64,000 nucleotides of DNA from Eledone cirrhosa (lineage: Eukaryota). The notes under the pieces were generated by a model. It ran no database searches. It was not told the DNA's origin and saw only the letters and a list, made by a program, of their open reading frames with translations. Made by a program: the position numbers and the translations under genes. Location of the stretch: NCBI GenBank assembly GCA_964016885.1, contig OZ024766.1, positions 15,934,001 through 15,998,000 of the forward strand, read 5' to 3'. Shown here piece after piece: positions 6,610-64,000 of this stretch. Numbering within the stretch: position 1 is the stretch's first letter; each line of letters starts with the position of its first letter.

Positions 6610-7932
6610 ATGTTGAATGTTTTTCATGATGTTGTGGTAGGCATATTTCTGGTCATCCACCAGTCAAGGTTTATTTTGATCCACAAACTTACGCAACACT
6701 TCAATATCATGGTTTGTCTCCTGAAAAACTGATTGTGTTACCTCAATTTCTTCTGGCTCTGGCATCCCGCATTGCTATTCATTGCTGGAATTCAATGGGA
6801 CAGTTTGCACAGAGGTTGATTGTAAATCCTGGAGGTAGATTCCACATAAACATTGCTATAACATCTTTGGTCTAGGTGTAGATAGTCGTCTGACATATTG
6901 TTTTTGTGCTCCTTCCAGGGTAGATGAGATTTATTCCACATGCTGTGAGTATAGTAGGAAACAACTGTCTTATTTAACTGGCTACTCCAGTGACTGCTCC
7001 TTCTAGTACCTTCTCCCAATGTCAGTTGTCATACAGGTGTCCATGGCCATCTTATTTAACTGGCTACTCCAGTGTCTGCTCCTTCTCGTCTCTTCTTCCA
7101 ATGCCAGTTGTCATACAGGAGTCCATGGCTGTCTTATTTAACTGGCTACTCCAGTTACTGCTCCTTCTAGTCACTTCTTCCAATGTCAGTTGTCATACAG
7201 GTGTCCATGGCTGTCTTATTTAACTGACTACTCCAGTGACTGCTCCTTCTAGTCTCTCTTTCCAATGTCAGTTGTCATACAGAAGTCCATGGCTGTCTTA
7301 TTTAACTGGCTACTCCAGTGACTGCTCCTTCTAGTCCCTTCTTCCAATGTCAGTTGCCATACAGGTGTCCATGACTGTTTTATTTAACTGACTACTCCAG
7401 TGACTGCTCCTTCTAGTCTCTCTTTCCAATGTCAGTTGTCATACAGAAGTCCATGGCTGTCTTATTTAACTGGCTACTCCAGTGACTGCTCCTTCTAGTC
7501 TATTCTTCCAATGTCAATTGCCATGCAGGAGTTGATGTTCTTTAGATGCTTCTTGGTATGTGCTGCACTCTTCCACCAAATCACCTGAGATCCTCAAATG
7601 ACGTTGGTCCTTGAACAATATGCAGAAGTGGCTGTAAATAAAAACTCTCTCTGTCGTTGGGGTGGTCATTGTAAACATGCCCAATAGCATCACTTGCCTT
7701 GACTTCATCACCTTCCACTAAATGACCCTGCTTCCTTTGATTCCAAGTCTTACAATTGGTCCAGGTGTAGTATTTTGGGATGTCAGCATATAGGAGGGAT
7801 CGAACAAATTCTTTATTCTGGCAGTGTTTCAAAAAAGCAGTTAGAGTAGTGTCAGGTGGTGCTGGTGTCAACTGATGAGCAGTGGTTTCAGTGAAGTACA
7901 CACTCTGTCCATTTTCTATATGTATAGAGATA
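6610..7932 (-). pseudogene. Decayed Helitron Rep/helicase fragment (region between Rep and PIF1 motif I), split by the 82-bp minisatellite
   Basis: Minus-strand translation SIHIENGQSVYF...TTLTAF...LLYADIPKYYTW...AIGHVYNDHP...FYLQPLLHIVQGPTSFEDLR...CSTYQEA...LL..N.HW, then beyond the array RQLF..IL..C...WKEHKNNMSDD...GMPEP...ETNHDIEVLRKFVDQNKP*LVDDQKYAYHNIM. These match Helitron RepHel motifs as recalled. Contains stops and frameshifts. Confidence 0.88.
6967..7514. repeat. 82-bp minisatellite, about 6.7 copies
   Basis: Unit gtcttatttaactggctactccagtgactgctccttctagtcccttcttccaatgtcagttgtcatacaggtgtccatggct. Confidence 0.97.
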
Positions 7933-7959
7933 AGGATGAAAAGCAAAGTTAATCTCTCA

Positions 7960-8433
7960 GAGGTTAGCTTTGCCTTTCATCCCTACGGGGTCGATAAAAT
8001 AAAGTACCAGTAATACACTGGGGTAATTGCTGGCCTTGTGCCTAAAGTAGAAACAATTTTTACGGGGTCGATAAAATAAAGTACCAGTAGTACACTGGGG
8101 TAATTGCTGGCCTTGTGGCTGAAGTAGAAACAGTTATTATGGGGTTGATAAAATAAAGTACCAGTAATTCACTGGTGCTATTTGCTGGCCTTGTTCCTAA
8201 AGTAGAAACAGTTATTACGGGGTTGACAAAATAAACTACCAGTAATACACTGGGGTATTGCCGGCCTTGTGGCTAAAGTAGAAACAATTATTACGGGGTT
8301 GATAAAATAAAGTACCAGTAATTCACTGGTGTTATTTGCTGGCCTTGTGCCTAAAGTAGAAACAGTTATTACCTGGCTGATAAAATATAGTACCAGTAAT
8401 TACTGGCCTTGTGTTAAAAGTAGAAACAATTAT
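7960..8433 (+). repeat. Tandem of a ~77-bp SINE 3' half, 6 copies (2 copies at 17408, 25519, 47069; 3 copies at 37802, 58271)
   Basis: Unit acggggtcgataaaataaagtaccagtaatacactggggtaattgctggccttgtgcctaaagtagaaacaattatt matches the 3' half of the SINE at 10075-10250. Confidence 0.88.
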
Positions 8434-9179
8434 CACATTTCTTTTTAATAAATCACATCACTATAGAATTAAATACGACTGGAAATGTGTGTGAAGGTAT
8501 TAAATTATGTCACGGACTTTTAACGTTTGACACCGTACGAGAGTTGAAATATACGCAACGAGACCGAGTACCTGCTGCCTTCATTATAACTTTAATTAAT
8601 CTGATTATATCTTGTGTAACAATTATATATATATACACACACACAAGTTTAATAACCCGACATCTGTCTTACACTGTCATATCTATTCTTACTTTACAAT
8701 TGTGTCTACTAAGAGTTCCATTACAATCTGTAGTAGTAAAACTACTATTTCACCAGAACATCTGCTATCAGTCATTTATAGACAATATATATATTTGAGA
8801 CCACGTATCAACCTAATATATATATATTTCCTATCAAATCTGTAGCTAAAGACATAAAGTCAGCCTCACTACTTCATTCTGACAAGATATCAATTTATGA
8901 CTAAAGATGAAGAAGATACACCAACGTTAATGTCGTGAAATAAAGCTGATAACATTGAAACTTCTAATTTGATAACAAAGAGATTATTTCTTTGGTTGTT
9001 TAGTAACAACTAACAACACAATACATTGATTATATGTTAAGGAGGTAAGTTGACAAAGATTTACTTAATGTCTATATTAATGTGTGTAAATAATATAATT
9101 ATTTTAACCCTACAACGATCTAGTAATTAACCAGATTCCACTGTTACATGTGATATAAAATATATTGTTATCATGACTC

Positions 9180-60912: not shown

Positions 60913-61286
60913 AATATCAGATGACATTAGGATAAATTATTATTTTCAATCTTGGATACATCACCTCTATTTATCATCATTTGAAGATTAAAACTTTTTA
61001 AACAGAACTTATATAACACTGTTTATATAAATCTATCAGAATTACTGTGATATATTTCCTCAGAACTGAGTTTAAAGACAAAATTCCTTTTCTTCACTGT
61101 GTGGTATATATATATGAGAGATATATTTTGTATTTTAACTCAGCTTCAATGACAAAGAAGTTTGCATCATCTTCAGGTATTAACTGAGATCATAATTGAG
61201 GGAAATATAACAGAAATAATATTTTTTAGGAAAAAAAATATTAAAGAATAACATCTGTAAATTCTGCCAAGGGTAGAAGAATTATT

Positions 61287-62900
61287 ATGGAAAATAAATT
61301 GAGTGAAAAGAAGATTAAATGTGAAACAATGTCTAAAGATATGGCTATTCCAGAAGAGATGTTAAAGGATAGAGGAGAGAAGCCATATCACTGTGATGTT
61401 TGTGGTAAATCATTCTCTGAAAGTAGTACCTTAACTAGCCACAAACGTACACATACAGGAGAGAAGCCATATCACTGTGATATCTGTGGTAAATCATTCT
61501 TTGTTAATGGTGAATTAACTAGACACAAACGTACACATACAGGTGAGAAGCCATATCACTGTGATATCTGTGGTGAATCATTCTCTCAAAGTAGTACCTT
61601 AACTAGCCACAAACGTACACATACAGGAGAGAAGCCATATCACTGTGATATCTGTGGTAAATCATTTTCTGGAAGTGGTCATTTAAATAGCCACATGCGT
61701 ATACATACAGGTGAGAAGCCATATCACTGTGATATCTGTAGTAAATCATTCTCTTTTAGGAGTAATTTAACTAGCCACGTGCGTATACATATAGGTGACA
61801 AACCATATCACTGTGATATCTGTGGTAAATCATTCTCTCGAAGTAGTATATTAACTTGTCACATCCGTACCCATACAGGTGATAAGCCATATCACTGTGA
61901 TGTCTGTGGTAAATCATTCTCTCACAGTGATACCTTAACTAGCCACGTACGTACCCATACAGGAGACAAACCATATAACTGTGATATCTGTGGTAAATCA
62001 TTCTCTAAAAGTAGTATATTAACTAACCACATGCTTATACATATAGGTGAGAAACCATATTGCTGTGATATCTGTGGTAAATCATTCTTTGTTAATAGTG
62101 AATTAACTAGACACAAACGTACACATACAGGTGAGAAGCCATATCACTGTGATATTTGTGGTAAATCATTCTCTGAAAGTGGTAGCTTAACTAGACACAA
62201 ACGTATACATACAGGAGAGAAACCATATCACTGTGATATCTGTGGTAAATCATTCTCTCGAAGTAGTCATTTAACTACACACAAACATATACATACAGGA
62301 GAGAAGCCATATCACTGTGATATCTGTGGTAAATCATTCTCTTTTAGTAGTAATTTAACTTCTCACATACGTACTCATACAGGAGACAAGCCTTATCACT
62401 GTGATATCTGTGGTAAATCATTCTTTGTTAATAGTAATTTAACTAGTCACAAAAGTATACATACAGGAGAGAAACCATATCGCTGTGATATCTGTGGTCA
62501 ATCATTCTCTCTAAGTAGTATATTAACTTATCACATCCGTACCCATACAGGTGACAAGCCATATCACTGTGATATCTGTGGTAAATCATTCTCTAGAAGT
62601 GGTAACTTAACTACACACAAACGTATACATACAGTAGAGAAGCCAAATCACTGTGATATCTGTGGTAAATCATTCTCTGAAAGTAGTAATTTAACTAGCC
62701 ACATGCGTACCCATACAGGTGACAAACCATATCACTGTCATATCTGTGGTAAATCATTCTCTCGAAGAAGTTACTTAACTCAACACTTACGTATCCATAC
62801 AGGTGAGAAGCCACATCGCTGTGATATCTGTGGTAAATCATTCTCTCAATTAAGTAGTTTAACTAGACACAAACATAACCATACAGGTAAGAAACCATAA
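61287..62900 (+). CDS. Poly-C2H2 zinc-finger protein, 18 fingers (gene 6)
   Basis: 537 aa = 33 + 18x28. Confidence 0.95.
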
Positions 62901-64000
62901 CAAAGTCATATCTCATTGTCTCAAAATTGTAAATTAATTAGACACAAATACATTCATATGAGTGAGAAGCCATACCACTGTGATATTGTGGAGAAATAAT
63001 TCTCTTGTATTGCTACATTAACTACATACAAACAAAAATATATACTGGAGAAAAGCCATATTACTGTGATATCTGGGGGAAATTGTTATCTATAAAAGCT
63101 AGCTTAACTAGACACAAACATATATATACAGGAGAGAAACCATATCACTGTGATATCTGGGAAATCATTCTCTGAAATAAGTCACTTCACTCAGCACTAA
63201 CATTTACAGAAAAGGAACCATATCGTTGTGATATCTGCAGTAAATCATTCTCTAAATGTTGTGGCTTCCCTACACACTAACATATACAGGAGAGGAACCA
63301 TATCACTGTGATATCTGCAGTAAATCCTTCTCTAAATGTGGCTTCACTAGACACTAACATATACAGGAGAGGAACCATATCACTGTGTTGTCTGTGGTAA
63401 ATCATTTTCTAAATGTTGTGGTACCAACACAAGGTTACTTAATGTAACACAAACACAATCAGACAAGATAAAAACCATGTCACTCAGCCAAAATAGTGCC
63501 ACCAATGTTGTTAATGTTTTGAATAAAACTTGTTTGTTCTGAAATTATTCTCCTTTCATTTTATTTGTAGAAGTTGTAACCAAGACTTATGCTGACAAAT
63601 CTGTATGGTACAGAATTTACAAACACTATATATATATATATATATATATATATATATATATATATGTGCCAAAACATCTATGATCTCGGTTTACAGCTGA
63701 TGAAGGGTTTCTTCTCTCCTTTCATCCATATTACCATCTTAAACTTTGTTTACAGTAACCACACAGCTCCTTTCGTTTCTTATATATATATATATAACAA
63801 AGGAGGTGTGGTAAAGAACCAGATGGACCATATACGCACCAGAGTACTCGATACTTAGGGTAGTAGAGCGGGTAATAGGAAAATGTTTAACCCCGACGGC
63901 AGAGCTCAATCTGTTTCGACGGCTATTTCTGGAAACAGTCCAGACATAACCGTCGAAATGGCTTCAGCTCTGCCGTCGGGGTTAAACATTTTCCTATATA

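Follow-up and report, generated by a model that had tools for sequence, protein, structure and literature searches.

Tandem birth-and-death clusters of C2H2 zinc-finger (ZNF) genes include young mouse KZFP clusters and coleoid expansions. The transposable-element (TE) enrichment of mouse KZFP clusters is reported, in the accessible portion of PMC11952569, as a consequence of segmental duplication, and the mechanism of KRAB-less ZNF expansion in cephalopods is called elusive in the available text of PMC12513265. The locus described here bears on the general question of how KRAB-less ZNF families grow in invertebrates. As far as the accessible text of PMC11952569, PMC12513265 and PMC9068888 goes, the mouse and coleoid clusters resemble this one in having same-orientation paralogues in duplicated blocks, passenger TEs proposed as NAHR substrates, and finger arrays that vary and are diverse at the residues contacting bases. 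According to the same partial texts they differ from it in three respects: here there is no KRAB, the repeat is a Helitron-derived VNTR rather than an ERV, and the duplicated unit is a single gene in 8–11 kb rather than a block of 3–7 genes. We consider it likely (probability about 0.65) that this cluster grows by unequal crossing-over anywhere in the cassette, with its minisatellite hitch-hiking as a large target.

Cassettes and zinc-finger genes

The window, meaning the whole 64-kb stretch of Eledone cirrhosa DNA that was analysed, contains six tandem cassettes of 8–11 kb, each with one Helitron relic and one C2H2 ORF. The cassettes are 94–98% alike from end to end; cassettes 2 and 3 are near-identical twins, leaving five independent cassettes. 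The ORFs are as follows.

11584 to 13194, + strand: ZNF gene 1 ORF, 18 canonical fingers, no effector domain
20624 to 21565, + strand: ZNF gene 2 ORF, 10 fingers
28737 to 29678, + strand: ZNF gene 3 ORF, protein identical to that of gene 2 (10 fingers)
40841 to 42118, + strand: ZNF gene 4 ORF, 14 fingers
50503 to 52524, + strand: ZNF gene 5 ORF, 22 canonical fingers
61287 to 62900, + strand: ZNF gene 6 ORF, 18 fingers

All six are same-strand paralogues with at least five linked canonical fingers (10–22), and thus form a tandem poly-C2H2 cluster. Neither KRAB nor any other effector Pfam domain was found in the two ZNF ORFs scanned or in nine upstream + frames of cassette 6, which yielded only an RVT_1 scrap. 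A whole-protein search returned 7999 generic ZNF matches, with a single octopus protein (50% identical) among the best 120; the N-terminal leader gave no candidate, and an exact look-up found none of the six proteins. The fingers differ chiefly at helix positions −1, 3 and 6, and the base-contacting residues (−1, 2, 3, 6) have a crude pN/pS of 1.6 compared with 0.7 elsewhere (Fisher p 0.009). The nearest finger belongs to another gene in 53 of 82 cases and to the same gene in 13, with 16 tied; these counts are compatible with finger exchange between genes, and common descent predicts them too.

The region upstream of the ORFs has a predicted structure and two further repeats.

58500 to 60912, + strand: predicted promoter, non-coding exon and intron (CpG o/e 1.21 at 58500–58800; intron 59130–60912)
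9180 to 9747, unstranded: 115-bp VNTR where the predicted intron begins, 2.6–6.7 copies across cassettes
11108 to 11341, unstranded: 117-bp repeat in the predicted 5′ UTR, 2 copies in each of cassettes 1–3 and 1 copy in each of cassettes 4–6

Splice-like sites of the predicted intron are present in all five distinct cassettes, with the donor site at 9045 in cassette 1. Contig depth over 57760–61440 came from 4 of 14 runs, and as summed depth it gives no copy number and serves for leads only. No RNA data set appeared among the runs listed, which has no bearing on expression. In runs X1, X4 and X6 the predicted first-exon region (58744–58989) has ~7–40 times the depth of the unique intron, as if the exon were common to many more loci than the cassette. 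In X6 the 82-bp unit described below has a depth of ~21 compared with 257–444 for intron-like DNA, as if related cassettes were multi-copy without the amplified array. Run X5, the kind of which is not on record, has high cover on the predicted exons, near zero on the unique intron and low cover on the relic; its contigs end and begin near the predicted splice sites, a weak hint.

The Helitron relic and its 82-bp arrays

In all six cassettes the relic lies on the − strand, 3044–3653 bp from the ATG. This spacing refers to the ATG, and the likely promoter is only ~0.4 kb from the relic.

6607 to 6964, − strand: left part of the Helitron relic, covering the RepHel linker and stopping just short of Walker A in the helicase (P0001/P0002 matched by blastp with E values of 5e-9 to 6e-4)
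24172–24528, 32287–32643, 55814–56208, − strand: other copies of the left part, from self-alignment
7533 to 7931, − strand: Helitron relic, right part, aa 1011–1128 of P0001 (tblastn E ~1e-36)
16986–17379, 25097–25490, 37376–37774, 46643–47041, 57845–58243, − strand: other copies of the right part
7932 to 8400, unstranded: fold-back junction to a high-copy dispersed element, then the 77/78-bp VNTR (inverted match)

The relic is a RepHel homologue, 56% identical to Helitron protein P0001 (PF14214 + PF05970; E 5.7e-31), and corresponds to aa 1011–1298 of 1738, collinear on both sides of the array and through it. The Rep motif (aa 806) and Walker A (aa 1312) of P0001 both fall outside this span, and the relic is thus an internal fragment between the two. 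Its left part is deleted in cassettes 2 and 5. No further RepHel pieces were found elsewhere in the window, and a Pfam search of the relic ORF gave no match. Other elements bound the relic at both ends; the high-copy dispersed element next to it is presumably SINE-like and gave rise to the 77/78-bp VNTR, the unit of which matches 10147–10255. Contig depth over this element is very high in all four runs.

Given that every cassette carries a Helitron piece, and that gene capture and tandem arrays are both known from Helitrons (accessible text of PMC12001565), the cassette might have been captured and amplified as a Helitron by rolling-circle transduplication. However, the relic is internal and lies between other elements, no hairpin–CTRR terminus with a stem of at least 6 bp is common to the five cassettes scanned (the one match lies inside array A1), the relic contains no Rep or Pif1 motifs, and no TC...CTRR termini surround the cargo. 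The cassette boundary is also not fixed, with junctions that differ among cassettes. Because the relic is internal and has no Rep or helicase motifs or termini, rolling-circle capture fails, and we rejected it as extremely improbable.

The minisatellite is embedded in the relic. Its 82-bp unit is RepHel coding sequence that translates to about aa 1146–1174 of P0001, and its six unstranded arrays are as follows.

6965 to 7532: array A1, 6.9 units
14738 to 16985: array A2, 26.6 units plus a partial unit
24529 to 25096: array A3, 6.9 units, a hybrid in which A4 unit 1 is joined to the final six A2 units
32644 to 37375: array A4, 57.9 units
44102 to 46640: array A5, 31.0 units
56209 to 57844: array A6, 19.9 units

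Counted unit by unit, A1–A6 hold 7, 27, 7, 58, 31 and 20 copies, and A4 includes a perfect internal duplication of 1306 bp (16 units). Units diverge by 5–9%, compared with 2–6% for cassettes. In total 39 of 95 unit variants occur in more than one array and within-array distance equals between-array distance; the common variants fit inter-array exchange as well as descent. The other repeats vary as well: across cassettes 1–6 there are 5.4, ~2, ~2, 3, 2 and 3 copies of the 77/78-bp repeat and 4.9, 3.9, 3.9, 2.9, 6.7 and 2.6 copies of the 112–115-bp repeat. A literature search, with subscription papers mostly outside its reach, found no invertebrate ZNF cassette described as carrying a Helitron minisatellite; the 82-bp repeat may already figure in a curated octopus repeat library deposited separately from its paper (PMC13282606).

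Much of the original prediction is recovered here. It had described a KRAB-less ZNF family in which every gene is preceded, about 3.5 kb upstream and on the opposite strand, by a Helitron relic without termini, bearing a transposon-derived hypervariable array of about 7, 27, 7, 57, 31 and 20 copies, and it had described four further tandem repeats as varying independently; the 77/78-bp, 112–115-bp and 117-bp repeats and the 84-bp fingers do vary among the five distinct cassettes. Its alternative origin, rolling-circle capture, falls.

The majority unit contains a hairpin, 11 nt, CTAG and then TC, an arrangement seen in 0.4–1.1% of 20000 dinucleotide shuffles. It could be a cryptic Helitron head-to-tail junction, nickable by RepHel made elsewhere and starting local recombination, but it was noticed after the fact, its stem is only 5 bp and antisense to RepHel, its sites vary no less than other positions in the unit (2.1 vs 2.0 alleles/site, p 0.85), array boundaries lie elsewhere, and within-unit indels follow short direct repeats. 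We regard this as very improbable, and hold out equally little prospect that the unit is a true recombination initiator, tandemised RepHel DNA nicked in trans by the transposase of an active Helitron. If it were, a dead transposon fragment would set the duplication rate of a KRAB-less ZNF family that is possibly itself a transposon silencer.

Duplication, deletion and exchange along the cassette

The mapped junctions and tracts are listed below.

16500 to 32725, + strand: recent tandem duplication, 16500–24610 repeated as 24611–32725
14733 to 14738, unstranded: deletion junction (at least 1.9 kb), unique DNA into A2, 4-base microhomology and a short insert
44099 to 44102, unstranded: deletion junction (at least 1.6 kb), (TA)n tract into A5, ~1 base microhomology
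53903 to 54128, unstranded: ~225-bp near-perfect palindrome, (TA)n-flanked, in the gene tail (fold z −27.6)
23130–23354, 31245–31469, 43439–43664: other copies of the palindrome
8545 to 8665, unstranded: conversion-like tract of cassette 1 at the likely promoter, outside the repeats

In the assembly sequence the duplication of cassettes 2 and 3 covers 8.1 kb at 99.9% identity (four substitutions and two 2-bp indels). Its junction, a clean two-parent hybrid, falls inside A3 in an identical 75-bp interval between 24573 and 24649, so that the one resolvable duplication (1 of 1) joins gene copies within a repeat, as in the Dox/359-bp system. Near-identity and a junction within a tandem repeat could also mean that the assembly stitched a false duplication, or a second haplotype, together at the repeat, which would remove the sole gene-number event in an array; however, four of the six differences are substitutions rather than indels alone and the hybrid is clean, and we consider such an artefact unlikely. 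On the side away from the array, both array-ending deletions stop in unrelated DNA that matches an array over at most 7–9 bases, which is chance level, and neither removed a gene. The palindrome has been broken twice, by independent deletions at about 757 and 14479. Rfam gave eight matches on 53000–64000, all sub-threshold and seven of them on inverted repeats.

Exchange extends beyond the repeats. Among 3475 non-repeat columns, 38 informative sites cover all 10 possible splits with 41% pairwise compatibility (random 40%), compared with 1.6–5.6 sites (max 12) expected under parallel mutation on a star tree. The non-repeat cassette DNA is itself mosaic, with exchange along the whole cassette, and the mosaic sites may stem from conversion without crossover, which leaves gene number unchanged. 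All 13 private variants in the tract at 8545–8665 belong to cassette 1 (permutation p ~0.003); a change-point scan was significant in one of five cassettes. Segment trees gave a star-like, mosaic signal in which older crossovers could not be located.

It is possible, though doubtful, that the 82-bp array genuinely promotes crossovers, through multi-register homology and frequent breaks, and so makes this ZNF subfamily duplicate more often, with specificity altered by finger turnover. The array junction of the only resolvable duplication, the two deletion ends in arrays, the rapid internal turnover and the supply of alignment seeds (2480 exact matches of at least 40 bp in arrays vs 779 in other DNA) are in keeping with this, as is the Dox/359-bp satellite precedent in the accessible part of PMC12941216. 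However, the array makes up 25% of the homology available to the cassette 2/3 duplication, and a single junction there has P ~0.25 by length. The deletions made no use of array homology, exchange runs along the whole cassette, and a single array per cassette presumably could not create the first duplication. Three of 13 mapped breakpoints (two of 12 deletion ends) lie in arrays that take up 21%, 34% or 49% of the length (P for enrichment 0.53, 0.87 and 0.99), in a low-power set from one haplotype with a single crossover; the (TA)n tract and palindrome hold six of the 13, and deletion ends probe fragility, not crossover rate. The array is neither the sole nor the best donor–target homology: the cassettes are alike throughout, the longest perfect inter-cassette match is 275 bp outside arrays vs 132 bp inside, and 25 perfect matches of at least 150 bp lie outside repeats, with none in the 82-bp arrays or the finger arrays.

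The original prediction was right that at least one gene duplication and two deletions end in the 82-bp array. Its proposal that the array supplies the homology driving gene number is unsupported, given that the deletions are microhomology joins that lost no gene, the 13 mapped breakpoints show no enrichment per bp, longer perfect matches lie outside arrays, and exchange occurs in non-repeat DNA. Of its two-tier diversification system, the finger tier finds support, with variable finger number and diversity at helix −1, 3 and 6, and the array as gene-number engine does not. The finger array is an equally large target (19% vs 21% for the 82-bp array), so the two tiers are not demonstrably separate. 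Calling the cassette "self-amplifying" is an overstatement because no active machinery is encoded.

Our best reading is thus an ordinary birth-and-death ZNF cluster, growing by unequal crossing-over along the cassette, in which a hitch-hiking VNTR sometimes hosts crossovers. Variation in four further VNTRs of unrelated origin favours it; the only resolvable gene-number change falling in an array, and the many more alignment registers that arrays offer, count against it. Fast array turnover, as in the 1306-bp duplication, would erase older crossovers, so arrays are probably under-counted, and, on the evidence of one haplotype, the array may be a modest crossover hotspot. The proposed history starts from the internal RepHel fragment upstream of the gene, an 82-bp piece of whose coding sequence was tandemised; unit divergence relative to cassette divergence suggests that the array was already multi-unit before the cassettes split. 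The block is repeated as a whole, which is why the relic precedes each gene by descent. Misaligned cassettes would then exchange along their length, a crossover duplicating or deleting a gene, as at the one junction seen in an array. Spacer deletions probably arose via microhomology, mostly at (TA)n and the palindrome, as their junction sequences suggest. Lastly, VNTRs, including the 84-bp finger array, gain and lose units, and base-contacting residues diversify fastest, presumably under selection.

Comparison with known systems

Present evidence illustrates ordinary cluster turnover and does not demonstrate a new diversification system. The locus offers a gene duplication mapped to 75 bp within a transposon-derived VNTR, together with variant-coded arrays in which long reads would readily reveal crossovers, and is a convenient test site for duplication inducers.

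Heli2Xen, DINE/HINE and oyster Helentrons are reportedly Helitron-associated minisatellites and satellites. In the accessible text of PMC12001565, such tandem repeats are born within Helitron sequence, as here, and are mostly internal repeats of non-autonomous elements spread by transposition; unlike those, the 82-bp unit consists of RepHel coding sequence, sits in a fragment that is not mobile, and spread by segmental duplication. The PRDM9 coding minisatellite likewise has 84-bp finger units that vary in number, with sequence differences mostly at codons −1, 3 and 6 (available portion of PMC3890296), whereas the present case is a multi-gene family without a PR/SET or KRAB domain, known from one haplotype.

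For the kb-scale tandem duplication inducers of barley, too, the proposal is that arms-race genes duplicate more often because of repeats; that study, in the text accessible of PMC12573847, tested genome-wide association, whereas here 13 breakpoints at one locus show no enrichment. Dox-like genes of the Drosophila simulans clade are, like the genes here, satellite-flanked copies gained via ectopic exchange, and were inserted into pre-existing dispersed islands of the 359-bp satellite, according to the partial text of PMC12941216. Unlike Dox, the array here was inherited within a tandem unit homologous end to end, with a single junction in the array. Close precedents exist, on the accessible text of these sources, in Dox and its 359-bp satellite, mouse KZFP clusters and ERVs, and the barley duplication inducers.

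Cassette layout and the origin of the 82-bp unit

Six cassettes of 8–11 kb run from 5454 to the right edge of the window, and the original prediction was accurate in what it observed: each carries a Helitron relic with a variable 82-bp array (6.9–57.9 copies) before a C2H2 ORF. The order is spacer, relic with array, 77-bp VNTR, predicted promoter and non-coding exon, followed by an intron with a 115-bp VNTR, a 117-bp repeat, the ORF, and a tail with a palindrome and (TA)n. Arrays 1–6 hold 6.9, 26.6 plus a partial unit, 6.9, 57.9, 31.0 and 19.9 copies; genes 1–6 encode 18, 10, 10, 14, 22 and 18 canonical fingers, behind a leader of ~30 residues in which a Pfam search found no domain. 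Donor and acceptor splice-like sites in all five distinct cassettes (near-identical cassettes 2 and 3 counted once) and a CpG o/e maximum at 58500–58800 place the relic, 3.0–3.7 kb from the ATG, a predicted ~0.4 kb upstream of the putative promoter. The host is an animal, and finger and SINE features look octopus-like.

Further features in and beside the cassettes
1–418, minus strand: LINE 3' fragment
417–1283: tail of a seventh cassette
1281–1997: 314-bp direct duplication enclosing a 25-bp tandem and preceding the LINE ORF
2254–5328, plus strand: RTE-type LINE ORF, intact-looking and uninterrupted, 1024 aa, with endonuclease, RT and PHD finger domains
10253–10381 and equivalents: LINE reverse-transcriptase scrap, 82% to 4288–4419, carried by each of the six cassettes in its predicted intron; another passenger TE
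13195–13711 and equivalents: degenerate 78–86 bp finger-like repeats beyond the stop codon of every gene, varying in number
14161–14283 and equivalents: second inverted-repeat element, ~123-bp, MITE-like, in each gene tail

Contigs from four public sequence runs cover the cassette. Those of X5, a run of unspecified type, stop near 59129 and restart at 60911, which coincides with the splice sites predicted and hints weakly in their favour. A 206-bp contig from another organism (X4) covers the relic with 3 differences, so a relative also has it. Three runs have contigs that are far deeper over the predicted promoter and first exon (58621–59235) than over adjacent cassette DNA; this segment may be common to a much larger ZNF family.

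The relic ORF matched two Helitron RepHel proteins among 47 candidates (56% and 53% identity), and its translation is collinear with RepHel on both array flanks and through one unit:

aa 1011–1128: right of the array
aa ~1146–1174: the unit
up to aa 1298: left of the array

The minisatellite is thus a tandemised 82-bp segment of transposase coding sequence. The relic fragment reaches neither the Rep motif (aa 806) nor Walker A (aa 1312), both relic ends adjoin other repeated elements (the right via a small fold-back), and a scan of five cassettes found no hairpin-CTRR terminus-like sequence common to them; the relic is incapable of mobilising or amplifying DNA on its own. Units differ at 4.2–7.1 of 82 bases, within arrays as between them, 39 of 95 unit variants occur in at least two arrays, and cassette divergence is ~2–6%; we infer that a multi-unit array is older than the split of the present cassettes. 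Array 4 contains a perfect 1306-bp (16-unit) duplication and then a diverged third copy (33136–35747). On the strand opposite RepHel, the majority unit has a hairpin with a 5-bp stem, followed by 11 bases, CTAG and TC (unit positions 13–44, e.g. 6977–7008). This motif, spotted post hoc, arises in 0.4–1.1% of shuffles and shows no conservation among units; it resembles a Helitron head-to-tail junction, but that it acts as one is most improbable.

Duplication, deletions and breakpoints

Over 8.1 kb, cassettes 2 and 3 are separated by 4 substitutions and two 2-bp indels. Array 3 opens with an exact match to array 4's unit 1 and closes with array 2's final six units (one difference), and diagnostic bases place the switch between 24573 and 24649. 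Unequal crossover between arrays on either side of a single gene would be expected to leave such a hybrid. This junction is the strongest point for array-hosted gene duplication, but it is a single event, and array 2 accounts for 25% of cassette 2.

Two deletions had also been taken as evidence that the array provides homology. One fuses unique tail DNA into array 2 at 14733, with a short insert and microhomology of 4 bases; the other fuses a (TA)n tract into array 5 at 44101. The non-array ends have only 7–9 bases in common with an array, which is chance level, and the losses (at least 1.9 kb and at least 1.6 kb) comprise spacer and no gene; both events were therefore non-homologous and lend that reading no support. 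Four further rearrangements >50 bp all lie outside arrays:

Palindrome deletions: 122 bp and 211 bp
Deletion: 593 bp, 5-base microhomology
Difference between two (TA)n tracts: 285 bp, polarity ambiguous

The 12 rearrangement ends fall in arrays (2), (TA)n (4), the palindrome (2) and unique DNA (4). With the crossover included, and leaving aside the LINE junction at 1283 (also at (TA)n), indels <50 bp and changes in VNTR unit number, 3 of 13 breakpoints are in arrays. The proposed enrichment per length is not seen, whether arrays are taken as 21% of the cluster (P 0.53), 34% of the most complete spacer (P 0.87) or 49% of all spacers (P 0.99), nor when the ambiguous 285-bp event is dropped (3/11; P 0.42 at 21%). 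(TA)n and palindrome together take 6 of 12 ends on ~8% of spacer (P 0.0002), or 4 of 10 without the ambiguous event (P 0.006), both values applying to classes picked after the data were seen. Two independent deletions cut the palindrome, which makes a better candidate for a fragile site than the 82-bp array does. Near-perfect, ~225 bp long and flanked by (TA)n (z -27.6), it occurs at 53903–54128, 23130–23354, 31245–31469 and 43439–43664. Relative to the cassette 5–6 spacer, the same (TA)n tract forms the junction of three different rearrangements (~1283, 23800, 44100, 54570) and is the LINE insertion site.

Exchange across the cassette and in the finger arrays

Excluding the diagonal of the cassette 2/3 twins, inter-cassette exact matches of at least 150 bp number 25 in non-array DNA (longest 275) and none in 82-bp arrays (longest 132) or finger arrays (longest 143); short alignment seeds number 2480 in arrays versus 779 elsewhere. 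Five cassettes were aligned over 3475 non-repeat columns, in which 38 informative sites back all 10 splits with 41% compatibility, as random, whereas parallel mutation on a star tree yields 1.6–5.6 such sites (maximum 12). All 13 private variants in a conversion-like tract at 8545–8665 are cassette 1's own (permutation p ~0.003), in a scan significant in one of five cassettes; the tract falls in the promoter/first-exon region. The mosaic sites and this tract point to exchange distributed over the whole cassette. Conversion instead of crossing-over may underlie these exchanges, which therefore weaken the case for a crossover bias to arrays without refuting it.

Finger turnover is real: short finger blocks reappear at differing positions within and between genes, the 82 fingers of five genes comprise 63 helix types, and helix positions -1, 3 and 6 have variabilities of 0.85, 0.83 and 0.73, against 0.02–0.09 at 4 and 5. 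A crude spanning-tree estimate gives pN/pS of 1.6 at contact codons versus 0.7 elsewhere (Fisher p 0.009). The proposed shuffling stands to that extent; the data would also allow fingers to be exchanged from gene to gene. Because finger arrays, at 19% of the cluster, are about as large a target as the 82-bp arrays, and a crossover there would alter number and specificity together, the two proposed tiers need not be separate.

The original interpretation is thus supported in part. An array that genuinely raises the duplication rate would fit the one array junction, but with no enrichment seen and deletions without array homology it is the less likely reading. We favour, at a probability of about 0.65, a ZNF cluster turning over by ordinary birth and death, in which the VNTR is a passenger and now and then the site of a crossover.

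Comparison with known systems

No published description of the combined Helitron minisatellite and ZNF cassette was found in the main texts searched. Its elements have precedents. Helitron-born minisatellites are on record (PMC12001565), as is satellite-assisted gene amplification at Dox (PMC12941216), and a general duplication-inducer hypothesis has been put to the test in barley (PMC12573847). Repeat content is covered by PMC13282606, and large C2H2 expansions are described in cephalopods and across metazoans (PMC12513265; PMC9068888; PMC10547256). The PRDM9 finger array is a coding minisatellite (PMC3890296), and TEs of mouse KZFP clusters have been proposed as substrates for NAHR while also being carried along by segmental duplication (PMC11952569).
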